Below, one piece after another: positions 5,254 through 45,279 of a stretch of 64,000 bases of DNA. Source of the stretch: a virus; UHGV virus genome UHGV-0279745, one strand, 5' to 3'. The stretch's first letter is position 1. The number at the start of each line of letters is the position of its first letter. Below the pieces are notes generated by a model. It saw only the letters and a list, made by a program, of their open reading frames with translations, did not search any database and was not told the origin of the DNA. The translations under genes were made by a program, and so were the position numbers.

Positions 5254-6387
5254 ATGTCAACATTAGATTCCGATTTAGAAGTCCTTTGCGATGACTACGA
5301 TCGATTGGTCGCGTTAGAATCGCTTAATGTTAAAGACAATTATCCGGCGGTTGTCGCTATCCGAAAACGGTGGGCTTTAGATGATGTCCACGTTGCGTTG
5401 GAGTCTGCAGCGATGATGGAACGCGCGCAATTTGTTGCGGACACCGAACCTTACGCAGGGGTAGGTAAAGCGGTCGCACGCGCGACCGGCAGAGCGGTTA
5501 AGGGAGTTGGACGCGTTGCTGGAAAAGCAGCAGTGGCAGGAGCCAAAGCGTCTGGAAAATTCGCAGGTAAACATTCTAAGCAATTGGCCTTACGTTTTAT
5601 CGACTTCGCGGAAGCCGCCGGTAAAGAAGTTATTAATGAACTGAAAGAAGCGACGTCCAAAGCATCGTCGTTAGAGCGCAAGCTACAGAAGTTAGAAGCA
5701 CGTTTAAGTTTACTCGGTATCAAGGACACTTTAGAACCGGTTGACTGTGACACGGGAAGTTGGACAACCAAAGTTTGTTTAGAAGACAAGCCTAACGTAA
5801 AAGCATGTATTGAGTTCAGTAAGAACCTGAGTGCAATGGATGCGATGGTCAACGAGTATACCGTTAAAACACGTACGTTAATCGGTAAGAGCAAGAAAGT
5901 TACCGAGAGCGGTTTGGAGAAAGTGGGCCGGTCAACGAACTGGGCGATTAAACGAAGCGCAGGGCTGTTCGGTATTATCGATCCGTTTAAAACGGTGAAG
6001 GCATATCCGTGGCCAGGTAACGTGGTGGTCGTTGAACACAACAACGGTAAGATTGAGTGGGCGATTGCCCGCGATGGTGATTTTGGTCACACAATCAAAT
6101 CTCTAAACTTGCACGAAATCGGTTCAGCTCTCGACGCCGTTAGAAACATTATCCGAGCGTTACGTCAGCGTGGTACGAAACGGCGTAGTGTTGGTTATAC
6201 CGGTATTTACGATGAAATTCAACGTATGCGTAAGGAACTTAAGTCGCTTGAAGGGCGGGAGTTACGCGACGCTACCGTACGTTATAAAAACGCACTGCGT
6301 TTAGAAGATGCGTTTACTACCTCGTTAGTGCGCGTTGCGGAAGGGTTACTGGAGTGGTGCAGGTTGTCACTGATTGAGGTTAAATAA
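5254..6387 (+). CDS. hypothetical protein (Ala/Gly/Lys-rich N-terminal half, coiled-coil segment)
   Basis: 377-aa ORF; no catalytic motif recognised. Confidence 0.55.
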   Translation: MSTLDSDLEVLCDDYDRLVALESLNVKDNYPAVVAIRKRWALDDVHVALESAAMMERAQFVADTEPYAGVGKAVARATGRAVKGVGRVAGKAAVAGAKASGKFAGKHSKQLALRFIDFAEAAGKEVINELKEATSKASSLERKLQKLEARLSLLGIKDTLEPVDCDTGSWTTKVCLEDKPNVKACIEFSKNLSAMDAMVNEYTVKTRTLIGKSKKVTESGLEKVGRSTNWAIKRSAGLFGIIDPFKTVKAYPWPGNVVVVEHNNGKIEWAIARDGDFGHTIKSLNLHEIGSALDAVRNIIRALRQRGTKRRSVGYTGIYDEIQRMRKELKSLEGRELRDATVRYKNALRLEDAFTTSLVRVAEGLLEWCRLSLIEVK

Positions 6388-6854
6388 TGCGTATCACTAT
6401 TATTCTCAAACCCGACAGTAAATACGGAAAGTTATACGGAGATCAGGTACTCAAACTGCACAACATGTTGTTCGCAGAAGAGAAAGTGCGTATTAGTCAG
6501 TTAACCGGACGTGACACGTTCAACCCAATTGAACACTTAGAAGAGATCTGGCCCCAAGATTATCTCTGTGCCTGTGCCGTGGATGACAACGAACAGATTC
6601 TGGGTTTCATGACGTTCTCAATAGGTTCTTGCTCGAAGGACACGTTTGTTTATATTGGGAACTACTACGTGATTCCCGAAGCGCGTTCTCAAGGGGTGGG
6701 TCGTGCGCTTATGGACAAAGTACGTGAATACGGAAAGTCCAAAGGTTGTGGTTGGATGAGTTTGGATGTGTTGGACAACAACGTTAAAGCTATCTCCTTG
6801 TATGAGAAAATGGGATTCCGTACTGAATGCAGGGAAATGATAAAGGAAATCTAA
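6387..6854 (+). CDS. GNAT family N-acetyltransferase
   Basis: RSQGVGRALMDKV...YEKMGF matches GNAT motifs A/B; ATAATG overlap with upstream stop. Confidence 0.7.
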   Translation: MRITIILKPDSKYGKLYGDQVLKLHNMLFAEEKVRISQLTGRDTFNPIEHLEEIWPQDYLCACAVDDNEQILGFMTFSIGSCSKDTFVYIGNYYVIPEARSQGVGRALMDKVREYGKSKGCGWMSLDVLDNNVKAISLYEKMGFRTECREMIKEI

Positions 6855-19960: not shown

Positions 19961-20005
19961 CCTACCGCCCGATTCTATGGGCGGTAGGTGTTTTTATTTT
20001 TTTTG
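19961..20005 (+). terminator. rho-independent terminator
   Basis: CCTACCGCCC-gattctat-GGGCGGTAGG followed by a T-run. Confidence 0.75.
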
Positions 20006-20020
20006 ATCTGGGAGGTTTTA

Positions 20021-20581
20021 GTGACTACTTACGTACCTGATTTAAGTCTGGCCTCAGCCGAATTAGTGGTCGCTTTAATCAACCACGATAACGGTTCACG
20101 GTTGTCTCTAAACGAAATCCGTATTAGCAACACTATGGCAAACCCGTCCCCGACCACTTCGCGTCGTAACACACTGACAGAGATTACAAAAATCAGGAAA
20201 CCTGATGGTGCTTCTGTGGTTGTTTATTACGACCGTCTGGATGCGGACGAAGTGTTAGCGTCTGAACCTATTTTGATTTCGTTAGACGGTACTGAAGACA
20301 ACCTTCGTGACATTTTAGGTGTTGTAAATGAATTCTGCGGAACGAACTTACAACCCGAAGATTTACGTGCTGCAGATATCACCTTAGGTAACGAACCCAT
20401 TGCTGTTAACGTTGCTGACGATTCTCCTGCGTGGATGAATGCGTTCATGGTAACGTTATTCGATACAACAGAACGAGCATTAGCAAACGAAGATGATGCG
20501 ATCTTCTGTATTGGTGATGATGCCGTTCTTACCTTTGAGGTTCCAGATGACGATTCAGCTGAAGAAAACCCGGCTACATGA
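20021..20581 (+). CDS. family-X paralog (fibre-associated hypothetical protein)
   Basis: Start placed at GTG 20021, 5 nt after GGAGG; the ORF-track start 19988 lies in the terminator. N-terminus VPDLSLASAELVVALINHD and ...VVVYYDRL match five other paralogs. Confidence 0.55.
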   Translation: MTTYVPDLSLASAELVVALINHDNGSRLSLNEIRISNTMANPSPTTSRRNTLTEITKIRKPDGASVVVYYDRLDADEVLASEPILISLDGTEDNLRDILGVVNEFCGTNLQPEDLRAADITLGNEPIAVNVADDSPAWMNAFMVTLFDTTERALANEDDAIFCIGDDAVLTFEVPDDDSAEENPAT

Positions 20582-20783: not shown

Positions 20784-23700
20784 ATGGCTAAAGCGGTAAA
20801 GAAAATTCGTTTACACGATTTACGTCCATACACCGGGGATATCGGTGAAGGCGTTTTACTTTTTTCGAAAGACGAAAGGGATTATCAGTTACCTGTCCGC
20901 GAGATTGTTGCGGATATTGACACCGTCAGAAACGCGGTTGCTGACGCACAAACGGCGGCGGCCAAATCGCAACAGTCTGCAACAGAAGCCACACAAGCAA
21001 AAGACTTAGCAGAAACAGCGAAGCAACAAACTGACACGTTAGCTTCCACAGTTAGCGAGCAAGCGGGAACCGTTGCCACTAAAACTGCCGAGGTTAGCAA
21101 AAAACACGCTGAAGTTTTAGCCGCGAAAACTGCCGTAGATACTGTATTACAGTCGGTAAATGAGAAAGCTCAAGCTGTCGCTACAAGCGAACAATCGGTG
21201 ACGGCTGCAGCGGCTGACGTAACTAAGAAAGCAGAAACGGTTACGCAACAGGCCGGACAAGTCCAACAGACGGCTACCGGTGTCGAGAATACTGCGGCTT
21301 CAGTTGAGGCCAGTAAGGGCGCAGTGGAGAAGATTGCTGCACAGGTCGCGAAAGATAAAGAAAGTTCAGAAGGCGCAGCAACACGTTCGGAGTCAGCTGC
21401 CTTACGTGCGGAGAAAATCGCTGCGCAGGGCTTAATCGACGCTAGTACAACCGGTAAAGGTATCGTTAAACTTAACGATACACTGACTAGCGAATCCGTG
21501 ACTGAGGCCGCCACACCGTCCACGGTTAAACAGCTGAATGACGAATTACAGTTAAAAGCCAATAAACATTCGCCGAATTTTACGGGTAAACCGTCATCCC
21601 CAACACCCCCGAAAGATTCAAACGACACGAGTATTTCCACAACGGCCTGGGTGCGTGACGCGATTGCGGAACTGGTTGGTTCTTCACCCGAGACGTTAAA
21701 TACCTTAGCGGAATTAGCTGAGGCGTTAGGTAATGACCCTAACTTCGCAACAACGATTACTGGGGAACTTGCGCAGAAACAACCTCTCAGTCCGTTGCTC
21801 ACCGCCATTGCCGCAGTCACCACAGCGGCAAATAAACTCATGTATTTCACTGGCAGTAATAAAGTCGGATTAACGGATTTTACAGAAACTGCCAGATCCT
21901 TGTTAGCGAAAGGGTCAACTGCGGATATCATCAATTTCTTGGGATTAAAGGCTACTGTAGATAAAGCGAATGGCGCGTTACAGAAAAACTCTAACGGCGC
22001 TGATATCCCAGATAAAGAAACGTTTGCTCGCAATATCGGTCTGTCTCCTGACACCTATCTGCGTTTCCGTGGCGAAATGCCAGTAGATGCTGATATTAAC
22101 ACATTTGCTCCAGATGCCAATTACACAGGAACGTGGGCTAAGTCGACGTCAACCAATGCGTCGATGGCAAAACATTTCCCAGAAGACGGTGCAGTCGGTT
22201 ATCTGGAAGTGTATAAAGCCGGTAATTACAGTGGCGCACAGCGTTTTACCTGCCGTAATGGTAACGTGTACAACCGTATGCTGAGTGGCGCGTGGAATGG
22301 TGCCAATGGACCCTGGTCACCGTGGAGAATGGTAACTACTGGTGTACGTCCATTATCTACCTCTATAGACTTGAACAGTTTGGGTGGCGCTGAGCATATG
22401 GGTAACTGGCGAAACTCAAGCAGTTCGCTGGCTGTTTTTAGCAGACATTACCCTGAAGAAGGTGGCGGTGCGCAAGGCGTACTAGAAGTAATGGAAGGTG
22501 GTCTTTTCGGACGGTTGCAGCGATACACCACACGTCGTGGTACGATGTATGTTCGTGGTTTGACCGCAACGTGGGATTCATCAAACCCGCAATGGGAAGA
22601 TTGGATTCAGGTTGGTTATCAGACTGACGGTGCTTTCTTTAAAGCCAATTTTAACGATCTCGTTAAACCGGGACGTTTCAGTGTCACTGGTGAAGCAACT
22701 AACGGTCCACTTACCGGTTCTTCTGGTGAAACCATATTAGGCGTTTGTGAAGTTACCTTACGCTTAGACGGTACAGGGGTCGAACAGAATTATACTACAT
22801 ACGGTACGGGTACAGAAACTAAAGGTCGTAAATTCCAACGTATCCGTACGGGTAACGCTTGGAGTGACTGGCGTGAGGTTTTCACATCGTATTCGCTTCC
22901 GTTGGTATTAGGTATCGGCGGTGAACGTGCGAATGTTGATCCTTTAGACTGGCAAACCTATGACTTTAAACCAGGTGAGTTAATCTGTACGCCGCTTAAC
23001 ACCATGAAAAATATTCCTACGGGAATGGATTGGGGTGTTATTGACGGTAACTTAGTTAGCATTCTGGTTGGTCCATCAGATGGCGCTACATCAGGCCGGA
23101 GTATGTTGGTTTGGCGTAGTACGGTGTCTACTGCCAACTATCGATTCTTTGCAGTACGTATCGCTGGTGATAAAGGTAGTCGTACGATTACACCACGCCA
23201 GATGCCTGTATTGAATGCAGCACACACCTGGGCAGAAAAACAGACCTTTGCAAAAGGGTTAGCAGGTGAGTTAACAGGCAATGCTTCAACCGCAACGAAA
23301 TTAAAGACCGCACGTAGAATTGGTGGGGTCGCCTTCGACGGTAGTGGTGATATTAACCTCCCAGGTGTTAACCAACAGGGTAATCAAAACACCACGGGTA
23401 ATGCCGGGACAGCCACTAAACTTCAAACTGCCAGAAATATTAACGGTGTGAGATTCGATGGTTCTGCTGACATCAATATCAACACCCTGGTAGGTCGTGG
23501 TCGGGTTACTGCACTAACCGGTTCAAACAAAGGTACGCCTGGTATTCAGATGTACGAAGTTTACAATAACGGTTATCCGACCGCTTATGGTAACTTACTG
23601 CATTTGGGTGGTTCTGCCGCATTAGGTGAAGGTGAACTGTTAATCGGTTGGTCGGGCACGAGTGGTGCGCACGCGCCCGTTTATATTCGTAGTCGACGTG

Positions 23701-25385
23701 ATACAGCGGATGCGCCGTGGTCAGATTGGGCACAAGTTTATACTGCCCGTGATAGTATTCCTGGTGTAAATACCACAGGTAATCAAGATACTACTGGTAA
23801 CGCTGCTACCGCGACGAAACTGAAAACTGCTCGCAGAATCGGGGGCGTTACCTTTGACGGTACTGGGGATATCAATTTACCGGGGGTTAACCAGCAAGGT
23901 AACCAGAATACGACAGGTAATGCAGCAACCGCTACTAAGTTACAAACAGCACGTAAGATCGGCGGTGTTAACTTTGACGGTTCGCAAGACATTAGTCTGC
24001 CCGGTGTGAACCAAACCGGTAACCAATCGACTACGGGGAATGCTGCGACAGCGACTAAGCTCCAGACTGCGCGAAATATAGGTGGCGTAGCTTTTGATGG
24101 TACTAAAGACATCAACTTACCTGGCGTAAACCAAACGGGCAATCAGTCGACCACCGGAAACGCGGCCACTGCAACAAAATTGCAGACAGCGCGTACCATT
24201 AACGGTATCGCATTTGACGGCACCAAAAACATCGAAATAACGGCTGAAAGTTTAAATCTTGGCCAAACTGTAGAATTGGCCGGTGGGTCATTGCAGAAGA
24301 AACAGAATGGTGCCGATATTCCAGATAAGAGAAAATTCTTACGAAATGTTGGTGCCGCGAACACAACAACTGTGTCTTTTAATGGTGGTGCCGGATGGTT
24401 CAAACTGGCAACTGTAACGATGCCGCAAGCCAGTTCCGTGGTTTACATAAGCCTGATTGGTGGTGCAGGGTTTAACGTTGGTTCCCCACATCAAGCAGGT
24501 ATCTCTGAGCTGGTTCTGCGCGCAGGAAATGGGAATCCAAAAGGTATTACTGGTGCGTTATGGCGACTGACCTCAGTCGGCTTCACTAATTTTGCATGGG
24601 TGAATACATCTGGTGACACTTACGATATTTATGTTGAAATAGGTAATTACGCCACCGGTGTTAATATTCAGTGGGATTACACTAGTAATGCCAACGTAAC
24701 GATTCATACATCGCCAAGTTATACGGCTAATAAACCCGCAGGACTAACAGACGGTACCGTCTATCTGATTTACAGCACACACAACAAGCCTAACGCTGGT
24801 GACATCGGTGCGTTACCGTCAGGGGGCGGTACTATAGGTGGCGATTTAACCGTTAACGGTAAATTGGTCACTAAGTACCCTGATTTTCGAATCGCTTACG
24901 GCAACTACGGCTTTATGTTACGTAACGATGGTGCCAATACCTATTTCTTAGTAACCGACGCCGGTCAAGCTGCAACGGGTTCCTGGAACGGTCTACGTCC
25001 GTTGTATTTTAATAATGCTAACGGTCAAGTAACCTTTGGTCATAACGTTACTGGCAGCGGTAACGGTTCGTTTAACGACGTACAGATTCGTTCTGACCGT
25101 CGTAACAAACGTAATCTGGTGAAACTAGATAAAGCTTTGGATCGGTTAGAGTTACTAACCGGTTATTTGTACGAAATTCAGCATCCTGACGACGGCTGGC
25201 AGACCTCTGTAGGTCTAATTGCTCAAGACGCATTAGAAGCGTTACCTGAACTTGTGTCTGAGGATGATGATGTCATTTCAGGCGAAAAACGTTTACGTCT
25301 AAACTACAATGGTGTTATTGCGCTGTTAGTAGAGGGTATGAAAGCGTTGCGTCAAGAGATTAACGAAATCAAAGGGAGATCCTAG
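20784..25385 (+). CDS. long tail fibre protein with C-terminal intramolecular chaperone (S74-like) domain
   Basis: 1533 aa: Ala/Thr/Gln-rich N-terminal region, six 40-aa repeats (GNQxTTGNAATATKLQTAR..GV.FDG..DINLPGVNQ), and C-terminal SDRRNKRN...GLIAQDALEALPELV resembling the autoproteolytic chaperone domain of endosialidase-type fibres. Confidence 0.88.
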   Translation: MAKAVKKIRLHDLRPYTGDIGEGVLLFSKDERDYQLPVREIVADIDTVRNAVADAQTAAAKSQQSATEATQAKDLAETAKQQTDTLASTVSEQAGTVATKTAEVSKKHAEVLAAKTAVDTVLQSVNEKAQAVATSEQSVTAAAADVTKKAETVTQQAGQVQQTATGVENTAASVEASKGAVEKIAAQVAKDKESSEGAATRSESAALRAEKIAAQGLIDASTTGKGIVKLNDTLTSESVTEAATPSTVKQLNDELQLKANKHSPNFTGKPSSPTPPKDSNDTSISTTAWVRDAIAELVGSSPETLNTLAELAEALGNDPNFATTITGELAQKQPLSPLLTAIAAVTTAANKLMYFTGSNKVGLTDFTETARSLLAKGSTADIINFLGLKATVDKANGALQKNSNGADIPDKETFARNIGLSPDTYLRFRGEMPVDADINTFAPDANYTGTWAKSTSTNASMAKHFPEDGAVGYLEVYKAGNYSGAQRFTCRNGNVYNRMLSGAWNGANGPWSPWRMVTTGVRPLSTSIDLNSLGGAEHMGNWRNSSSSLAVFSRHYPEEGGGAQGVLEVMEGGLFGRLQRYTTRRGTMYVRGLTATWDSSNPQWEDWIQVGYQTDGAFFKANFNDLVKPGRFSVTGEATNGPLTGSSGETILGVCEVTLRLDGTGVEQNYTTYGTGTETKGRKFQRIRTGNAWSDWREVFTSYSLPLVLGIGGERANVDPLDWQTYDFKPGELICTPLNTMKNIPTGMDWGVIDGNLVSILVGPSDGATSGRSMLVWRSTVSTANYRFFAVRIAGDKGSRTITPRQMPVLNAAHTWAEKQTFAKGLAGELTGNASTATKLKTARRIGGVAFDGSGDINLPGVNQQGNQNTTGNAGTATKLQTARNINGVRFDGSADININTLVGRGRVTALTGSNKGTPGIQMYEVYNNGYPTAYGNLLHLGGSAALGEGELLIGWSGTSGAHAPVYIRSRRDTADAPWSDWAQVYTARDSIPGVNTTGNQDTTGNAATATKLKTARRIGGVTFDGTGDINLPGVNQQGNQNTTGNAATATKLQTARKIGGVNFDGSQDISLPGVNQTGNQSTTGNAATATKLQTARNIGGVAFDGTKDINLPGVNQTGNQSTTGNAATATKLQTARTINGIAFDGTKNIEITAESLNLGQTVELAGGSLQKKQNGADIPDKRKFLRNVGAANTTTVSFNGGAGWFKLATVTMPQASSVVYISLIGGAGFNVGSPHQAGISELVLRAGNGNPKGITGALWRLTSVGFTNFAWVNTSGDTYDIYVEIGNYATGVNIQWDYTSNANVTIHTSPSYTANKPAGLTDGTVYLIYSTHNKPNAGDIGALPSGGGTIGGDLTVNGKLVTKYPDFRIAYGNYGFMLRNDGANTYFLVTDAGQAATGSWNGLRPLYFNNANGQVTFGHNVTGSGNGSFNDVQIRSDRRNKRNLVKLDKALDRLELLTGYLYEIQHPDDGWQTSVGLIAQDALEALPELVSEDDDVISGEKRLRLNYNGVIALLVEGMKALRQEINEIKGRS
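23265..23483 (+). repeat. tandem 120-bp (40-aa) repeat block 1 within the tail fibre gene
   Basis: Two units encoding G(E/N).(T/N)TGNA.TATKL.TAR.I.GV.FDGS.DIN.... Confidence 0.8.
23778..24240 (+). repeat. tandem 120-bp (40-aa) repeat block 2 within the tail fibre gene
   Basis: About four consecutive units GNQ(D/N/S)TTGNAATATKLQTAR.IGGV.FDG..DI.LPGVNQ. with high DNA-level identity. Confidence 0.85.
25091..25382 (+). other. C-terminal intramolecular chaperone / autoproteolysis domain of the tail fibre
   Basis: SDRRNKRN...LTGYLYEI...GLIAQDALEALPELV matches the conserved pattern of endosialidase-type C-terminal chaperone domains as recalled. Confidence 0.7.
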
Positions 25386-26167
25386 TGGCAGTTGTCGGCG
25401 TAGGTGGTTGGATTGGTTCTTCAGCAAAAGCTGAAACTGGTAACGATTGGATGTCTGGCGCGATGCGCACACTTGGTGTGCCGGTTCCAGGCTGGATGTC
25501 GCAATTGGCGGGAAAATCAAAAGAGGTCCATTATTCTATTGGTGCTAACCATAGCTATAATAAGGATACTCTTATTAACTATTTACGTTCTTTAGGCTCT
25601 ACTGCTGTCGTTGTGACTATTACGGGGGATTTAGTGTCTTATAGTAGCGGAGTTCCTTGTTTAGAGTTCCCTGGCGACCTACCGAACTCCTCCATTACAC
25701 TCGTTATCAATCCTGGGGTTACAGTATACGGCAGAGGAGGCAACGGTGGTTCTAACTCGCCAGGCGGTGCAGGTGGAACCGCAGTACAGAACGGAATAGG
25801 AAACAGGTTACGTATAACTAACCGTGGCGCTATTGCCGGAGGCGGTGGCGGCGGTGGCGGCGGTAACAGGGGTAGACTAATATTTGGTGGTGGCGGTGGT
25901 CGCCCATTCGGTGCTGGTGGGTCTTCCTCTCATATGAGTTCCGGTGCAACTGCTGGTACTATTTCCGCTCCTGGTAAAGGATCTGTTGGTGAGGGGTCTC
26001 TTAGTGCATATACAGGCGGTTCGGGTGGTAATGTCGGTGCTGCTGGAGGAAGATGTAATACTCAAGGTAACGGTACAGAATATAACGGCGGAGCAGCTGG
26101 TAAAGCTGTTACTGGTAATGCGCCAAGATGGGACGCAGTAGGTGCAATATACGGTTCACGTGTTTAA
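25385..26167 (+). CDS. glycine-rich protein (poly-Gly tract), fibre-associated
   Basis: GTG start overlaps the fibre stop by 1 nt (TAGTG); contains GGGGGGGGGN and many GG/GGS tracts. Confidence 0.6.
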   Translation: MAVVGVGGWIGSSAKAETGNDWMSGAMRTLGVPVPGWMSQLAGKSKEVHYSIGANHSYNKDTLINYLRSLGSTAVVVTITGDLVSYSSGVPCLEFPGDLPNSSITLVINPGVTVYGRGGNGGSNSPGGAGGTAVQNGIGNRLRITNRGAIAGGGGGGGGGNRGRLIFGGGGGRPFGAGGSSSHMSSGATAGTISAPGKGSVGEGSLSAYTGGSGGNVGAAGGRCNTQGNGTEYNGGAAGKAVTGNAPRWDAVGAIYGSRV

Positions 26168-26242
26168 TTAAAAAGGAGGGTAGATGGGGTAGCGTCAGGA
26201 TGGGTCGGATCTTCAGCTAGGAATGAAACGGGCGAACAATGG

Positions 26243-26686
26243 ATGAGCGCTGCTGGTAGTAAATTAGGATTGGGTAGACCTTTTATGATGAGTCAAATGG
26301 TGGGAAGATCTATGGGCTGTAAAATTGCAACTGCTGCATATAGCGATTCTTTAGGTAAGAAATGGGGCGCGGTAGGGCCAAGCTGGCCGTTAAACCAGAA
26401 AAATCAGGGAACCATTCAAAACGCGGGTAACTGCGGGGTGGGAACTTTAGTAGGTATCGAGTTACAGTTAACGACGATAGTTGCTAACGCAAAACCCACT
26501 TTAGCGGTTTACTTACAAGGTGGGAGAGCCTCTAACATTACCGTAAATTTAGGTGGCAACACTTGTACGCTGACCTATCAGCAGGTTATTAACGGACAGC
26601 ATTATTACTGGACTAATAACATCAGCGCTGCGTTCCAAAACGTAATGAAATCAACAGGCGCGCTACGTGATTTGCGAATTAGTTAA
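26243..26686 (+). CDS. paralog of the glycine-rich protein N-terminus (5' end uncertain)
   Basis: Homology to the N-terminus of the 25385 ORF (GW[IV]GSSA+xETGxxWMS[AG]A) begins in frame upstream of ATG 26243, directly after the TAA of the preceding gene. Confidence 0.5.
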   Translation: MSAAGSKLGLGRPFMMSQMVGRSMGCKIATAAYSDSLGKKWGAVGPSWPLNQKNQGTIQNAGNCGVGTLVGIELQLTTIVANAKPTLAVYLQGGRASNITVNLGGNTCTLTYQQVINGQHYYWTNNISAAFQNVMKSTGALRDLRIS

Positions 26687-26773
26687 TTATTTTCAACTGA
26701 AATCGTAATTGAGGGGAGGGGGGTGAAATGATTCTAGTAACATTTTATCCCCCTACTGTAGGGGGTAAACTTT

Positions 26774-27289
26774 ATGGGACAATTCGTGCCGGATTTGTCA
26801 CTGACCTCACCTAACATGGTTATTTCGTTGATCAATCACGACCTTCAGCTTGATCTGCAAGAAACCGATGTTGAGTTTAGCGAACTAAAATCTAGCGACG
26901 CGATGGATCGTGATACCACTGCTGTTGTAAAGATCAAACGTCCGGGCAGCAGAACGTTACAGATCTATTACAATCGTTTAACCGCAGAGCGGTGGTTAAA
27001 CCAGCAACCTATTCTGGTAAAGGTCACCGGTAATGGCTTTACTACGCACGATCTGATCGACGGAATTAATGCGGTCTGTGGTAGTAATTTACAAGCCGAC
27101 GATCTTACCGACGAATCATTTACCGTAGGGAGGGACGCTGTAACATTACAAGTTTCACCCAACTCGCTAGGTTATAAAGGCCAATTCTCCGTTCTGGTTT
27201 TCGGTAACGATGAAGAAGCCGCAGTAACAAAAGACAACGATTTGATCGTTACTGCAGATAATCGTGTCTTAACATTCGGAGGTCACTAA
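26774..27289 (+). CDS. family-X paralog (fibre-associated hypothetical protein)
   Basis: MGQFVPDLSLTSPNMVISLINHD and ...LQIYYNRL are paralogous to 20021-20581; precedes the second fibre-like gene. Confidence 0.55.
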   Translation: MGQFVPDLSLTSPNMVISLINHDLQLDLQETDVEFSELKSSDAMDRDTTAVVKIKRPGSRTLQIYYNRLTAERWLNQQPILVKVTGNGFTTHDLIDGINAVCGSNLQADDLTDESFTVGRDAVTLQVSPNSLGYKGQFSVLVFGNDEEAAVTKDNDLIVTADNRVLTFGGH

Positions 27290-27909
27290 TGGCTGAACTG
27301 GTAGGAAAGGTACGCGTTCACGAACTACCGACACTTTCAGAAGACGTCACAGGTGTAGTCGTCTTAGCGTCTAAAGAACAAACTGAATACCAACTCCCGA
27401 TTGAAAAATTAGGGGGTGGTGAGGTTACAGTGAGTCCGTCGGCGAATAACATCCTTAAGTCTAACAGTGATGGGTTGTTTGTTAATGGTGCGCATCCGAT
27501 TGTACCAAAAATAGATGCAAAAACCGTATCGGGAAATATGGTAGTAGAAAAAACGTTGACGGGTGGTGCGGTAATCTGCAAAACAACGGTTGACGTTAAT
27601 AACAGGCTGGGTGTTACGCAATTATCAGGGGTATCAATTTATAGCCAGTGTCTGTTGGAAAATAAACTGGTTTACCTGGCAGCAGATGGTGGTATTATTG
27701 ATGCGTACTTCTACGTTAGTGGTACAAAAACCACAGCGAGTACAATAACCCACACCATTCGGGTTGTCTTAGCGAAAGTACCTTCTAAAGTTGTCGATAT
27801 CACCGATTTGTCTGAAACCGAAGTACAATACGAGAATAGTAATTTACCTGTTAAGATCGTTATTAAACATCTTGCAGGGACAACACTTTCTCAGAACGGA
27901 ATGAAATAA
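27289..27909 (+). CDS. short tail-fibre-like protein (fibre N-terminal domain paralog)
   Basis: N-terminus MAELVGKVRVHELPTLSEDVTGVVVLASKEQTEYQLPIEKL is paralogous to the N-terminus of the 1533-aa fibre; ATGA coupling with upstream gene. Confidence 0.6.
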   Translation: MAELVGKVRVHELPTLSEDVTGVVVLASKEQTEYQLPIEKLGGGEVTVSPSANNILKSNSDGLFVNGAHPIVPKIDAKTVSGNMVVEKTLTGGAVICKTTVDVNNRLGVTQLSGVSIYSQCLLENKLVYLAADGGIIDAYFYVSGTKTTASTITHTIRVVLAKVPSKVVDITDLSETEVQYENSNLPVKIVIKHLAGTTLSQNGMK

Positions 27910-27916
27910 TTTTTAG

Positions 27917-27956
27917 GTAGTAGGGGCTTAGCCCCTACTACCTTTTTTATTTTTTC
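27917..27956 (+). terminator. rho-independent terminator
   Basis: GGTAGTAGGGGC-tta-GCCCCTACTACC followed by a T-run. Confidence 0.8.
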
Positions 27957-41481: not shown

Positions 41482-42029
41482 TCATCGTCTCCTTTAATCA
41501 ACCCTAATTCGATTAACAGTTCAAAATCGATATGACGGAATCTTGTGTCGAAGTCCGATTCCCAATCGATACGGATACCCTGGCATTCTTCTGGCGTTAG
41601 CTCAGGAAAAATCACGCTATTAAATTTCTCCCGCTCATCGTAAAACCCATCAATCGGTGAGTTCGGGTTACGTGTTGCGAAGATAGTAATGCCGGGGAAG
41701 GACAATGCCAACACAGTGATAGATTCTGCGCTGGGTTCGCTTAAAGAGCGGCGTAGAAACGCAATTTTGTGACGTGGGAAATCCAATACCCGTTCTTCAA
41801 ACCCTGGGTTACGTTTTTCAATTTCCGCGACCGACAGGTCAGTAAGTTCGGTGCAGTACATTGGGATGATTACAGTCACACCGTGACGAATCAGCAAGCG
41901 TTTTACGTCATCGGTGAAATCTTCACCGTTAATCACCACATAACAACCAAATAGCTTACTGTTTTCCAGAAACTTATCCAGAAGTCGAATTCTACGCTTC
42001 GTAATATTGTTGATCAGAATTGGTTTCAT
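41457..42029 (-). CDS. hypothetical protein (rSAM-operon accessory)
   Basis: 190-aa ORF; start overlaps the 3' end of the radical SAM gene. Confidence 0.5.
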   Translation of the reverse strand: MKPILINNITKRRIRLLDKFLENSKLFGCYVVINGEDFTDDVKRLLIRHGVTVIIPMYCTELTDLSVAEIEKRNPGFEERVLDFPRHKIAFLRRSLSEPSAESITVLALSFPGITIFATRNPNSPIDGFYDEREKFNSVIFPELTPEECQGIRIDWESDFDTRFRHIDFELLIELGLIKGDDECLLLVKA

Positions 42030-43314
42030 CTTTGGCTTCTCTTAATAATTTTTCCTTTTGGGCACGTTCACGAACACAGCGTGGGCAATAACACATGCTC
42101 GTGTCGTGGAACGCTTTTGCTGACGTCGTACCCATCTTCTGTTTCCAGTATTCCGCCACCATCAGTTTCGCTGTCGTCCAGCCACACTGACGTCGTTCAG
42201 CGTGATACGCTTTACGGTCTTCTAACGTTCCTTCCCCGTTCTCGTAAGAAGCCGCCGCGCAGCTACCACAAGCGTGTTTCATCGGACAACCTAAACAGGT
42301 CTCTGGGTAGTTGGTATATTGCGTTTGAATCTCTTCTAACAATTTACCGTTGTCCAGACTGACGAATTCCCGACCTACCAACTCAAACACCGCAGAACGC
42401 GACGTTACCGTTGACATAAAGCGGTTACAGCCAAAGATCTTACGGTCAAATCCTAAGCACGTCATGTGCGTTAACGTCCCACAGAACGGACGTAAGCGTT
42501 CTGGGTTCAGCCGTACGGTGTCATTATACAGTAACTGGTCACGCCAGTTCGGTTCCCAAATCGTATCGAAATCCAACCCTTCTGGAATGATGTGCGATAA
42601 GATATTACGTGGGTTGGTGTGTAATCCTTTCTCAACCCAGTAATCTATCACATCCATCATCTGTAAAGCGATTGACGTCGCCATGCTACGTGGCATAACG
42701 TCTTCGAAAGTTACGTTTCCAGAAATTGTCCCACCGCCAGTAATGTCAATTAATGACTTCATCCCCGCAGCATAGAACGGCAGCGTTTCTAACGTAAAGG
42801 TTGCTTTTACGCCGAGCTCTGCAATGCCAACCTCTTTTAAGTAGTTATAGCCACGTACTGCGGCTTCGTAAGAACCCTGGCGTGTTGTTGTGAATATACG
42901 ATAACGGTCATGGGATTCAGGTAAGCCGTCAATCGAAACCCCAACCGAAAGTTTGTCTTTCCAACGTTCTACAATCTCACGGTTCAACGGACGATCTAAC
43001 AGCGTTCCGTTCGTGGAGATACTAAACATAAACGGTCGGTTGTGTTCTTTACACAACTGCTCAGCGGTTTCAAACGCAGCCAGCAGCAGTTTAGGTTGCA
43101 TGAACGGTTCACCACCGATAATGTCAATAATAACTTCAACATTCGGTTCGTTTTTATCACGTTCAAAACAGGCGTGTAAGAAATCAACAATATCTGCCGC
43201 TTTGTTGTTACGCGGGTACTTACGTTCGTAACAATACTCGCAGTCCAGGTTACACGAAAGGTTGGTTACGATCTGATACGTTAACTGCTTAGGGAATTCA
43301 TTTACTTGACTCAT
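41992..43314 (-). CDS. radical SAM enzyme with C-terminal SPASM-like Cys cluster
   Basis: CNLDCEYC (CxxxCxxC) near the N-terminus, GGEPFM glycine-rich SAM motif, and C-terminal clusters CGTLTHMTC...C and CLGCPMKHACGSC; GAGGGG SD before ATG. Confidence 0.85.
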   Translation of the reverse strand: MSQVNEFPKQLTYQIVTNLSCNLDCEYCYERKYPRNNKAADIVDFLHACFERDKNEPNVEVIIDIIGGEPFMQPKLLLAAFETAEQLCKEHNRPFMFSISTNGTLLDRPLNREIVERWKDKLSVGVSIDGLPESHDRYRIFTTTRQGSYEAAVRGYNYLKEVGIAELGVKATFTLETLPFYAAGMKSLIDITGGGTISGNVTFEDVMPRSMATSIALQMMDVIDYWVEKGLHTNPRNILSHIIPEGLDFDTIWEPNWRDQLLYNDTVRLNPERLRPFCGTLTHMTCLGFDRKIFGCNRFMSTVTSRSAVFELVGREFVSLDNGKLLEEIQTQYTNYPETCLGCPMKHACGSCAAASYENGEGTLEDRKAYHAERRQCGWTTAKLMVAEYWKQKMGTTSAKAFHDTSMCYCPRCVRERAQKEKLLREAKDETNSDQQYYEA

Positions 43315-44221
43315 TTGCCGCCCCTCTATTACGCCCTGCCATCACCACACGACGAATATATTCGTACGCCTCTACACCGATAGAGAAGGCCAGTTGGTTA
43401 CATCCCGATTCCAGAACGTTAGGTGCATTCTGGAGTTGGTGCTCACCACCGTCTGCATTAATCCAAAGACTTTCGCTGCAAACGTTACACCCTTCTTCAA
43501 ACACTTTACTTACTGTAAAGCCGCATTCACGACTATTTACTACATTCAGTCGTTCAATGTTATCCTGAACCTGATAGTAGCCGTAAATAAAGTTCATGAC
43601 GTGGTCGGGCGATAAAGGTTTTGGCATTTTCGCATCTAAGAGTAACGTCATTGCACGGAAACCGTAATGGTAAATCGCGCTGTGCAGCTGAATAATATCT
43701 TCGTGCCAGCGTTTGTCCCCTAAACGGTCCCGTGTCAGGACACCCCAAGTCTGGACATTATCCAGCTCGTAGATCGTTTCCAGTGCTTCGTAACAGCCTT
43801 CGTCAATAAAGCGCATAAACGGGCGCTCAGACGACTTAAACCCATCGATGCTAACGTAGACATTGTCAAACTGTTTTAGCAACGGGAGATGCGATTTACG
43901 CATCTTTAAGCCATTGGTATACAACTGGTGTTTGAGTTCTGGACGAATCACTTTTAATTCGTCAACAAACGCCTCAATTTTACGGGTTGCCAGTAATGGC
44001 TCACCACCCGTCCACTGAATTTCGGTAATGGTTGGATTAGCTTCCAACGCTTCCAAAATTCGTTCACGTTGAAACTCTCGCGGAGAATCTTCACGATTCA
44101 TGTAATAGGCTCCACCGCAGAAGCTACAATCCAGGTTGCACTTGGACGTAGCGACTACGGACAATACGGTGGGTTTATCGTATAAACGATTCGATAACCT
44201 TGGTTCTGCATTGGTTGTCAT
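43298..44221 (-). CDS. radical SAM enzyme (second, shorter; twitch-like C-terminal Cys)
   Basis: CNLDCSFC (CxxxCxxC), GGEPLL motif, C-terminal C-x14-C-x2-C...C; 3' end overlaps the next rSAM start by 17 nt. Confidence 0.85.
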   Translation of the reverse strand: MTTNAEPRLSNRLYDKPTVLSVVATSKCNLDCSFCGGAYYMNREDSPREFQRERILEALEANPTITEIQWTGGEPLLATRKIEAFVDELKVIRPELKHQLYTNGLKMRKSHLPLLKQFDNVYVSIDGFKSSERPFMRFIDEGCYEALETIYELDNVQTWGVLTRDRLGDKRWHEDIIQLHSAIYHYGFRAMTLLLDAKMPKPLSPDHVMNFIYGYYQVQDNIERLNVVNSRECGFTVSKVFEEGCNVCSESLWINADGGEHQLQNAPNVLESGCNQLAFSIGVEAYEYIRRVVMAGRNRGAANESSK

Positions 44222-44242
44222 TGCAGGTGACTCCGGTCGTTT

Positions 44243-45130
44243 TTAAATATAATCAATGGCGAACAAAGGATCGTCGTCTACGTTAGCACCAGGGGTTAAC
44301 AAGAATGGAGAGTTATACGCTTCCAAAATACGGTTAAGGTCTTTATAACGGACATTTAAACGTTCTAAATCCGCTAACGTTACGTTACGGTCCAACACCG
44401 CCGACACTGCTGCTTTCTCTTCGTCAGTTAACGTGACTTTCGTCATTAAGAAACTAACGAGTTTTGCCAGATCCGCTTCTGTTGACGGATGCTCGCCAAT
44501 ACGCGTTTGAATCAAATGCTGCATCCAAGGCTTACGGATGCGTTTTGTGATTTCGTGTTCATCCGTCAGGGCAACCCACACGGAACGTTCACGATCCCAC
44601 ACGAACTTATAGCTATACGCCATTAAATCCGCTAAGCAATTAATCCCTAACGCTTCGTACCCTTCAATTTCGATATACGATTCCGTATCGAAATAGTTCT
44701 TCGTTTCTGGTGTTACCAGGGTAAAGAAATACGGGAACGAACCTAAGTAATCCGGCGACCACCAACGACGGGCAACCGGTTTTGCGCCCATTTCTTCAAA
44801 TGGGGTAAAGAACAATTCCATATCTACGGAGTTATTCAAAATCCCGTCACTAAAGAAATATTTACCCGCAACCAGTTTACCACGCAACTCGGAGTCACCG
44901 GTAAAGACCACTACACTTTCTGCCGTCAGATCACGAATCTTAAACGTATTTTCTACACGATAGTTTTTACGATCGGTGAAGAAACGTCCGCGCACTTTAG
45001 GCCATTCGCCCGGCAACTGAGTCAACAGACGAACTTCATCTGCTAAGTGTGCACGTACGGAATCAGGGGAAGAAATGTGAAGTGGATGATTGAAAATTGT
45101 TTTGTACGCTAAATGTAAATCATTCTTCAT
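44243..45130 (-). CDS. hypothetical protein (rSAM-operon accessory)
   Basis: ORF 44243-45142; ATG 45130 preferred (TGGAG 7 nt upstream). No motif recognised. Confidence 0.5.
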   Translation of the reverse strand: MKNDLHLAYKTIFNHPLHISSPDSVRAHLADEVRLLTQLPGEWPKVRGRFFTDRKNYRVENTFKIRDLTAESVVVFTGDSELRGKLVAGKYFFSDGILNNSVDMELFFTPFEEMGAKPVARRWWSPDYLGSFPYFFTLVTPETKNYFDTESYIEIEGYEALGINCLADLMAYSYKFVWDRERSVWVALTDEHEITKRIRKPWMQHLIQTRIGEHPSTEADLAKLVSFLMTKVTLTDEEKAAVSAVLDRNVTLADLERLNVRYKDLNRILEAYNSPFLLTPGANVDDDPLFAIDYI

Positions 45131-45279
45131 TGATTGCTCCAATTATTTCACGGTCAAACGGACATTCAGGGTATAGAAACCACCGCACCGTTGCCTACCG
45201 ATAACTTGAAACTCAGTAGTAAACCCGTACAATTAACTCAGTTATTGCGTAATAGACATACTACCACTGGAGGGCTTAG

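Follow-up and report, generated by a model that had tools for sequence, protein, structure and literature searches.

Among the closest described relatives of the protein examined here is gp38 of the Salmonella phage S16, the structural prototype (6F45_D), which is built from a helical docking domain tipped by tryptophans, a β-helix and a polyglycine-II sandwich. In its attachment domain, the apices of the helices bear three conserved tryptophans that serve as docking anchors, and its receptor-binding site has been described as “yet unknown” (PMC6851490). Gp38 of the T2/T6/S16 type is retained on the virion as the receptor-binding protein (PMC12032242, PMC6851490), and the sequence and order of its glycine-rich motifs are strictly conserved across phages (PMC3157838). 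The gp38 of T4 has the same gene number, is encoded at the same position after gene 37 and is likewise needed for a working long tail fibre, but it is unrelated in sequence and role: it assists folding and is not found in the virion tip (PMC6851490, PMC12032242). Among the T2/T6/S16-type adhesins, OmpA dependence has been reported for Bas45 (PMC8594841), FL18 and FL20 (PMC12032242) and RB49 (PMC9569957). Stx phages and SSU5-like phage-plasmids encode a short “Gp38” (phrog_1121) directly after the fibre gene which, in comparison with gp38, is devoid of the glycine-rich motifs and carries a different C-terminal domain.

Here we analyze a glycine-rich open reading frame in a stretch of 64,000 nucleotides from the virus genome UHGV-0279745, referred to as the window. 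All coordinates are positions in the window, and all features lie on the plus strand.

Results and discussion

The open reading frame at 25385..26167, which encodes 260 amino acids, was found both in a program-made list and by direct reading of the sequence. Glycine accounts for 66 of the 260 residues (25%), with 35% in residues 111-260 versus 13% in residues 1-110, and there are 12 runs of two or more glycines. The nine-glycine tract GGGGGGGGG at residues 152-160, which is followed by asparagine, is encoded at 25838..25864 by the codons GGA GGC GGT GGC GGC GGT GGC GGC GGT, where Tandem Repeats Finder reported 2.7 copies of the 9-nt unit GGCGGTGGC. An earlier sequence-only reading had correctly described a protein dominated by glycine with a nine-residue tract, but its judgement that this is unusual for phage proteins does not hold, as the same tract is conserved in RB49, JSE, Bas45, FL18, FL20, T6, M1 and others.

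The protein matches Pfam GP38 (PF05268) with E = 6.3e-69 and 232.6 bits (cut-off 25) over profile positions 1-218 of 218, and Gp38_N (PF21721) with E = 1.5e-15 and 57.4 bits (cut-off 25). Its PHROG matches are adhesin and host-specificity families, among them phrog_2056 (“tail fiber protein; host specificity”, E = 1e-93), and sequence searches of the PDB returned S16 gp38 (6F45_D, E = 1.4e-52, residues 7-258) and PP01 gp38 (9V85, E = 6e-38). Thus, the homologue search proposed by the sequence-only reading led to the gp38 adhesin family, matched over its full length. NCBIfam contained no model matching this protein or the second adhesin described below, and an exact-sequence look-up of gp38 and of a 147-aa downstream open reading frame gave no match. 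We are highly confident that the gene encodes a T2/T6/S16-type gp38 adhesin, a monomeric receptor-binding protein capping the distal tip of the trimeric long tail fibre. The family is common (725 phage records), and the protein is an ordinary member of it that is unusual only in its phiKZ/SPN3US-like jumbo-phage setting. Judged by its sequence relatives, it is not a chance open reading frame, because it matches the full GP38 profile and seven related jumbo-phage contigs of ~ 220 kb carry the gene, whose absence from related genomes would have spoken against the earlier reading.

It had also been suggested that the protein could be a fibre chaperone. Like T4 gp38 or Tfa, such an assembly factor would be absent from the virion; the gene does lie directly 3' of the fibre gene, and homologues are still labelled “distal long tail fiber assembly catalyst” in many database records. 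However, this label is a legacy of the T4 nomenclature, and T4 gp38, which is the chaperone type, is unrelated in sequence (PMC6851490). No assembly-chaperone family was matched, as Pfam at E ≤ 0.01 gives GP38 and Gp38_N alone, the predicted fold matches the S16 adhesin, which is bound to the virion, and the fibre already carries an intramolecular chaperone of its own (Peptidase_S74). We therefore regard a chaperone role as extremely improbable.

The AlphaFold2 model of gp38 has a mean pLDDT of 91.1 and a pTM of 0.81, with no residue below 50. With this model, Foldseek retrieved 6F45_D (TM-scores 0.83/0.87, rmsd 2.7 Å; 46% identity to S16 gp38 in the structural alignment) and 9V85_C (TMt 0.88), and beyond these two no match below E = 2. 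The predicted fold comprises a β-helix and a three-layer polyglycine-II sandwich, so that the same three domains as in S16 gp38 can be assigned. The N-terminal attachment domain (residues 1-46, 25385..25522), recognized by Gp38_N, contains helices modelled at residues 10-18, 23-29 and 38-41, and all three of its tryptophans, Trp9, Trp22 and Trp37, are aligned with those of S16. Residues 47-115 (25523..25729) form the N-terminal part of the central β-helix domain, modelled as strands with pLDDT 81-96 that superpose on 6F45_D. The glycine-rich motifs and hypervariable segments occupy residues 116-240 (25730..26104), assigned from the model and an alignment of reference adhesins using published definitions (PMC6851490, PMC12032242); this part would constitute the polyglycine-II sandwich and the receptor-binding end. 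Within it, the nine-glycine tract corresponds to polyglycine-II helix 3 of S16 (151-GGGGGGGG-158, PMC6851490), whereas the hypervariable loops differ from those of S16. In the alignment with 12 reference adhesins, all glycine motifs are in register, including the nine-glycine tract and GGGGGRPFG, invariant glycine columns are found, and the C-terminal end is conserved.

A glycine content of 35% in the C-terminal 150 residues could also be read as a flexible, disordered linker or a collagen-like fibre component. Against this reading, pLDDT never falls below 50 and reaches 91-98 in the glycine-rich blocks, the crystal structure on which the model superposes is ordered, and motif sequence and order are strictly conserved across phages, as noted above. 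Such a disordered component hardly comes into consideration. According to the model, the glycine runs are the conserved motifs of the family and build a rigid polyglycine-II core, not a flexible linker. Of the earlier proposal of a flexible fibre-associated component, the association with the fibre is upheld by the tight linkage to the fibre gene, but the flexibility is not.

The gene lies in a cassette bounded by two strong terminator-like hairpins with T-rich tails, upstream at 19961..19988 (11-pair stem, 8 GC pairs) and downstream at 27915..27943 (13-pair stem, 8 GC pairs). The first cassette gene (19988..20581) encodes a DUF7941 virion structural protein (PF25613, E = 1e-18; phrog_2935) with a paralogue at 26774..27289, identified in a Pfam scan as a second DUF7941 protein. 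The last one (27289..27909) encodes a short fibre of 206 aa with an N-terminus resembling that of the long fibre and a match to phrog_33169 in its C-terminal part. The genome is that of a phiKZ/SPN3US-like jumbo phage and not of a member of the Straboviridae as in the case of S16. Megablast of 50 kb of flanking sequence found no close isolate in the searched collection; it matched nothing but short pieces of fibre sequence and, at 72% identity, a radical-SAM gene pair in SPN3US-like phages. Related adhesins also occur in SSU5-like phage-plasmids, Stx phages and siphovirus-like contigs.

The partner of gp38 is a mosaic long tail fibre of 1533 aa (20784..25385) with Phage_fiber_2, Gp34_trimer and Peptidase_S74 domains. 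Its N-terminus is lineage-specific, residues 388-700 are P2-like with ~ 58% identity to a Peduovirus fibre, and distal repeats follow. The fibre tip (residues ~ 1373-1436, 24900..25091) is a homologue of the gp37 tip that serves as the docking site for gp38 in S16 (6F45_A, E = 4e-14, match spanning residues 1373-1531). In the C-terminal Peptidase_S74 domain (25092..25382), the match to PF13884 covers residues 1437-1491 and starts at profile position 1. The S16 system likewise combines a homologous tip with a self-cleaving C-terminal domain; for the window fibre, family knowledge predicts self-cleavage before Ser1437, between IR and SDRRNK, which would free 97 residues (PMC9569957). The gp38 gene adjoins and overlaps the gene of this fibre. 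The fibre stop codon TAG (25383-25385) shares its G with the GTG start of gp38, forming a TAGTG (25383..25387) with a one-base overlap, as the sequence-only reading had seen; a Shine-Dalgarno-like GGGAG is located ahead of it at 25373-25377. The overlap is kept in five genomes, as TAGTG in the window and L019 and as TAATG in L004, L005 and L013, a single A/G change that retains both stop and start. In L022 and L023, which have a different fibre-tip type, gp38 is placed ~ 47 nt past the fibre gene, and therefore the overlap is not universal. S16 differs from the window in this respect as well, Bas45 has a ~ 30-nt spacer between genes 37 and 38, and in Krischvirus these two genes are ~ 55 kb apart. 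As far as the alignments tell, GTG at 25385 is the true start of gp38, because the match to the Gp38_N profile begins with residue 1 and an ATG stands at the same position in three relatives.

By analogy with the family we propose that the fibre trimerizes, that its last 97 residues would be removed by self-cleavage, and that one gp38 monomer would dock on the exposed tip via Trp9, Trp22 and Trp37. Contact with a host outer-membrane protein would be made by the loops lying between the glycine helices. Re-initiation at the weak GTG within the fibre stop may yield less gp38 than fibre, and such a lower output would fit a 1:3 stoichiometry.

High similarity was found to the gp38 proteins of the OmpA-dependent T-even phages RB49, JSE and Phi1 (Krischvirus), PaulHMueller/Bas45 (Tequatrovirus) and FL18 (Mosigvirus), with 75-80% identity overall and 89-92% in the receptor-binding region, but just 48-65% in the docking domain. 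Across the glycine-rich motifs and hypervariable segments, RB49, Bas45 and FL18 share 89-92% identity with the window protein, versus 70% for T6, which uses Tsx. The motif of nine glycines followed by N-R-G is identical in these OmpA-dependent proteins. Residues 161-240 (25865..26104), the later hypervariable segments, form a specificity cassette with 92-100% nucleotide identity to Bas45 versus 58-77% upstream (60-nt bins); the corresponding megablast blocks begin at ~ 25825, and only 2 of the 80 residues differ. We infer that this cassette was exchanged with T-even phages by recombination with breakpoints in the glycine-rich motifs, the 5' breakpoint lying exactly at the end of the nine-glycine run. 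A T-even specificity cassette thus sits, nearly unchanged in its DNA, on the mosaic fibre of a phiKZ/SPN3US-like jumbo phage.

Although receptor prediction from sequence is fallible, the receptor of gp38 is most likely OmpA of E. coli, because residues 161-240 are near-identical to adhesins whose specificity has been determined experimentally. The alternative that a true gp38 adhesin recognizes something else, namely an O antigen, another porin or the OmpA of a host other than E. coli, appears less likely to us. In its favour, some O antigens can serve RB49-like gp38 proteins as alternative primary receptors (PMC9569957), and one substitution in the third hypervariable segment (HVS3) changes specificity from OmpF to OmpW, so that porin specificity is switchable by single substitutions. 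Differences from Bas45 are also present in the first hypervariable segment (residues ~ 123-150) and in the last 20 residues of the window protein. On the other hand, the cassette itself is nearly that of Bas45, it is common to three independent OmpA-dependent phages, and in an engineered phage swapping the distal half of the adhesin alone conferred OmpA specificity.

Weak constraint is usual for receptor-binding proteins. In comparison to relatives, gp38 shows 21/13 and 14/13 synonymous/nonsynonymous differences, a weaker constraint than on the second adhesin, which does not by itself prove function. Natural gp38 variants often carry in-frame deletions with glycine-rich motifs at both boundaries, and a deletion of 48 residues that includes the nine-glycine tract (Δ48) recurs in three related sources (L005, L019 and P0011). 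In T6, adsorption was not supported by variants from which single motifs had been deleted (PMC3157838). An assembly artefact is an unlikely cause of Δ48, because the repeat at its junction, located between glycine motifs, measures only 11 nt and assemblies from Logan and from IMG/VR, which are independent of each other, both contain the allele. The notion that the poly-glycine codon run is indel-prone thus applies to such in-frame deletions, but not to the tract itself, the length of which is stable across many phages. The circulating Δ48 allele, the fairly high nonsynonymous fraction and the presence of another adhesin and another fibre in the cassette might suggest that gp38 is a decaying, horizontally acquired remnant in a phage relying on its other fibres. 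This is very unlikely, since the window copy retains its full length, all motifs and the conserved start, its specificity cassette hardly differs from those of working adhesins, and the broken adhesin in this genome is the other one.

This second adhesin gene (26184..26686) encodes a Gp38_N domain (E = 3e-19) and an unrelated C-terminal domain. It belongs to phrog_1121 and shares its docking domain and 60-64% identity with the short “Gp38” adhesins of Stx phages and SSU5-like phage-plasmids, but it follows gp38 and is frameshifted. No solved structural relative was found, even at E ≤ 1. Relative to L004 it shows 33 synonymous and 4 nonsynonymous differences. In the window, the ATG at 26184 runs into a G4 tract (26186-26189) and a TAG (26190-26192), and the conserved frame resumes from 26189. 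Among near-identical sequences the tract is G4 in the window, out of frame, G5 in three contigs and G8 in one. A phage contingency locus is defined as a homopolymer within a coding region that is 6 or more bases long and changes its length reversibly and at elevated frequency (PMC12633550); of these assembled tracts, only G8 reaches this length. A programmed -1 frameshift at ATG-GGG-TAG, with P-site slippage on G GGG and the stop codon in the A site, was set aside because every homologue is in frame and the three near-identical contigs differ by one extra G only. The second adhesin shares the frame of gp38 and might also be reached by read-through of the TAA that ends gp38; a separate gene is simpler, because the second adhesin has a good Shine-Dalgarno sequence and an ATG, and in relatives 44 nt of unrelated sequence are inserted between the two genes. 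A disrupted copy in L024 was discounted as a second independent inactivation because this noisy contig carries several more small indels within 100 nt.

We can only tentatively suggest, and think it rather improbable, that the glycine-rich gp38 and the short Stx-phage-type adhesin compete through the same Gp38_N domain for one fibre tip and that the lineage switches between them by recurrent mutation. Deletion through the 11-nt microhomology would then disable gp38, as in the three Δ48 sources, and the length of the G tract would set the second adhesin off (G4, window) or on (G5/G8, relatives). If true, two adhesins on one fibre would make up a mutational host-range switch.

Conclusion

The main outcome of our analysis is a corrected annotation: the seemingly odd glycine-rich protein is, as its sequence relatives indicate, the host-range determinant of the phage, and near-identity to characterized adhesins points to OmpA as its likely receptor. 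The module of docking domain plus adhesin seems to move freely between unrelated phage groups, with the glycine-rich motifs as crossover points. It may therefore offer a handle for predicting and re-engineering the host range of jumbo phages, the receptors of which are mostly unknown.

Identity and fold of the glycine-rich protein

The open reading frame at 25385..26167 (+; 260 codons), confirmed at this position, encodes a full-length gp38-family adhesin. Its product, here gp38, covers the whole Pfam GP38 profile (E=6.3e-69), matches Gp38_N with residues 1-42 and is recognized by PHROG 2056 ("tail fiber protein; host specificity") with E=1e-93. The best match among solved structures is 6F45 chain D (E=1.4e-52, residues 7-258), the gp38 of the Salmonella phage S16 bound to its fibre tip; gp38 of phage PP01 (9V85) is also among the best. 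An AlphaFold2 model based on 45 homologues had a mean pLDDT of 91.1 and a pTM of 0.81, with 0 residues below 50, and its only significant Foldseek matches were 6F45_D (TM 0.83/0.87, rmsd 2.7 Å) and 9V85. The homologue search that the sequence-only reading had called for, made by tblastn, gave homologues in 725 phage records, the majority from T-even coliphages.

Glycine accounts for 66 residues (25%) of gp38, reaching 35% in residues 111-260 versus 13% in residues 1-110, and forms twelve runs of at least two residues, among them a nine-glycine tract at residues 152-160 that is followed by Asn. Proteins of this family begin with a three-helix bundle whose three tryptophans sit in pockets of the trimeric gp37 tip, and continue with a short linker and a beta-helix; two long excursions of the beta-helix, the glycine-rich motifs (GRMs), build a three-layer lattice of polyglycine-II helices, and the short hypervariable segments (HVSs) between GRMs are the receptor-binding loops (PMC6851490, PMC12032242, PMC3157838). 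W9, W22 and W37 of the window protein align with the three S16 tryptophans, and the nine-glycine tract aligns with the longest motif of S16 gp38 (151-GGGGGGGG-158). Given this architecture and the alignment of the tract, the glycine runs are a family hallmark that forms the rigid core. The first suggestion of a fibre-associated product coupled to the fibre gene stands, yet gp38 is neither a flexible component nor a fibre chaperone; it is a rigid adhesin that binds the receptor. The chaperone role belongs to T4 gp38, an unrelated protein of the same name, due to which many homologues bear a misleading "assembly catalyst" label.

The partner fibre and the gene junction

The upstream fibre gene (20784..25385, +; 1533 aa) ends with TAG at 25383-25385, and the overlap seen earlier is confirmed: the final G doubles as the first base of the gp38 GTG start (TAGTG). 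Five genomes of the lineage keep this one-base overlap, as TAATG in L004, L005 and L013, contigs of related jumbo phages, and as TAGTG in the window and in the related contig L019; a single A/G difference swaps stop (TAA/TAG) and start (ATG/GTG) jointly and preserves both. The sequence GGGAG lies 7 nt 5' of the gp38 start. Coupled re-initiation at this weak start would yield less gp38 than fibre, which would fit a 1:3 stoichiometry.

The C-terminal ~160 residues of the fibre match the S16 gp37 tip (6F45_A, E=4e-14), and a Peptidase_S74 match at residues 1437-1491 starts from profile position 1. At the motif IR|SDRRNK, self-cleavage would be expected before Ser1437, releasing 97 residues. The same layout has been reported in RB49 and in most T-even phages, whose fibre loses its C-terminal chaperone domain before a single gp38 monomer binds (PMC9569957). 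We propose that the chaperone domain of the window fibre would likewise be cleaved off and that a gp38 monomer would dock on the tip.

The one-base overlap goes with this type of fibre tip. The related contigs L022 (1-1386) and L023 (1655-7053) carry another fibre tip and intramolecular chaperone module, have ~47 nt between the two genes and encode a gp38 that differs in its first ten residues; these differences point to exchange exactly at the fibre-adhesin interface. The window fibre is a three-way mosaic of a lineage-specific N-terminus, a P2-like middle (residues 388-700, ~58% identity to Peduovirus fibres) and, distally, a T-even/S16-like part carrying the S74 chaperone.

Mosaicism, predicted receptor and stability of the glycine tract

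Aligned by region, the gp38 gene is itself a mosaic. Its docking domain (residues 1-46) shares 96% identity with L004 and 48-65% with T-even adhesins, while the GRM/HVS region (residues 116-240) shares 97% with L004, 89-92% with RB49, JSE, Bas45 and FL18, and 70% with T6 (Tsx). At the DNA level, Bas45 shares 58-77% identity as far as 25864, 92-100% over 25865-26104 and 75% beyond. The 5' breakpoint thus coincides with the end of the poly-glycine run and the 3' one falls within the last glycine-rich motif, as predicted by the idea of GRMs as recombination hot spots (PMC12032242). Residues 161-240 differ from Bas45 at 2 of 80 positions, and OmpA dependence is reported for Bas45 (PMC8594841), FL18 and FL20 (PMC12032242) and RB49 (PMC9569957). 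On this basis, we consider E. coli OmpA the probable receptor, with reasonable though not high confidence. HVS1 differs from that of Bas45, single substitutions can switch the porin, and RB49-like adhesins use some O antigens besides OmpA (PMC9569957).

The nine-glycine tract is encoded at 25838-25864 by GGA GGC GGT followed by two GGC GGC GGT units; a 9-nt unit in 2.7 copies makes up this stretch, which is not a homopolymer. The run had been called indel-prone. Its length is stable, being exactly nine in aligned RB49, JSE, Bas45, FL18, FL20, T6, M1, Ac3 and CMS-2020a, but larger in-frame deletions with both ends within glycine-rich motifs are frequent in natural variants. One such allele, of 212 aa (L005 8001-8639, L019 3001-3639; protein cluster P0011), lacks the 48 residues 128-175 including the tract, the deletion lying between two GGTGC(A/T)GGTGG motifs that code for GAGG, an 11-nt microhomology. 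This deletion recurs across independent assemblies, every time accompanied by an intact second adhesin. Since all single GRM or HVS deletions tested in T6 gp38 were non-viable (PMC3157838), the allele is probably inactive.

A tandem second adhesin

Directly 3' of gp38, the gene at 26184..26686 combines Gp38_N (E=3e-19) with an unrelated C-terminal domain (phrog_1121) and shares 60-64% identity with the "Gp38" adhesins that Stx phages and another CMS-2020a variant carry. In the window it is frameshifted at codon 2 (ATG GGG TAG, G tract 26186-26189), the conserved frame resuming one base back. With identical flanks, the tract is G5 (ATG GGG GTA) in L022, L023 and the related contig L024, and G8 (ATG GGG GGG GTA) in L019; in L004, L013 and L005 it is interrupted. 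The window's G4 alone breaks the frame. The body is otherwise intact and under strong purifying selection (33 synonymous and 4 nonsynonymous codon changes versus L004, 22 and 2 versus L005); the missing G thus reflects either a sequencing error or a very recent change. It may have been lost by slippage at a tract of the contingency type, but G8 alone among these tracts is long enough by the published criterion (PMC12633550). The allele pairs are suggestive but anecdotal (n=5 genomes): gp38 is intact and the second adhesin off in the window, gp38 is deleted and the second adhesin on in L005 and L019, and both are intact in L004 and L013. At 3844-4356 in L013, the second adhesin retains its docking domain with a different C-terminal domain, so its receptor-binding part has been swapped too. 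A further G9-G10 tract follows this gene in L004 (9382-9391), L005 (9195-9203) and L019 (4197-4205), where it can pair with a C-run just 5' of the next gene's ribosome-binding site; in the window's intergenic region (26687-26773) this tract is interrupted (GAGGGGAGGGGGG).

Genome context and spread

The source of the window is not a T-even phage. The large paralogous virion proteins encoded here fall into PHROGs characteristic of phiKZ/SPN3US-like jumbo phages, and a conserved 1400-aa virion protein is only 41-50% identical to those of Erwinia and Salmonella jumbo phages. Megablast with the flanks (50 kb) found no close isolate; a radical-SAM gene pair (~41990-45140) is the sole long stretch of similarity (72% DNA) to SPN3US-like Salmonella jumbo phages. 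The sequence-only reading had named absence of the ORF from related genomes as part of what would count against it; the cassette occurs in seven contigs of the same lineage, 221-230 kb long, that derive from metagenomes and public read sets. Two strong terminator-like hairpins (19961-19988 and 27915-27943) flank its six genes. One DUF7941 gene lies at 19988-20581, and a second, together with a 206-aa short fibre, at 26774-27909; in L022, a DUF7941 gene is fused to an N-terminal extension of ~470 residues. The N-terminus of the short fibre resembles that of the long fibre, and it may be a second fibre on the same anchor. Related adhesins are also present in siphovirus-like contigs and, with 81% identity, in the SSU5-like phage-plasmid CMS-2020a. 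Two CMS-2020a records, L002 (CP054387) 5998-6510 and L003 (CP053388) 5938-6777, differ in that one has a short Stx-type adhesin and the other a glycine-rich gp38, each after the fibre gene.

In conclusion, the gp38 family is itself well known, and the window protein adds one more member. Among the papers searched, none described gp38 adhesins in jumbo phages. Modest novelty lies in the jumbo-phage genome that hosts the gene, in its overlap by one base with the gene of a mosaic fibre, in the sharp limits of the T-even specificity cassette and in a second adhesin encoded in tandem.
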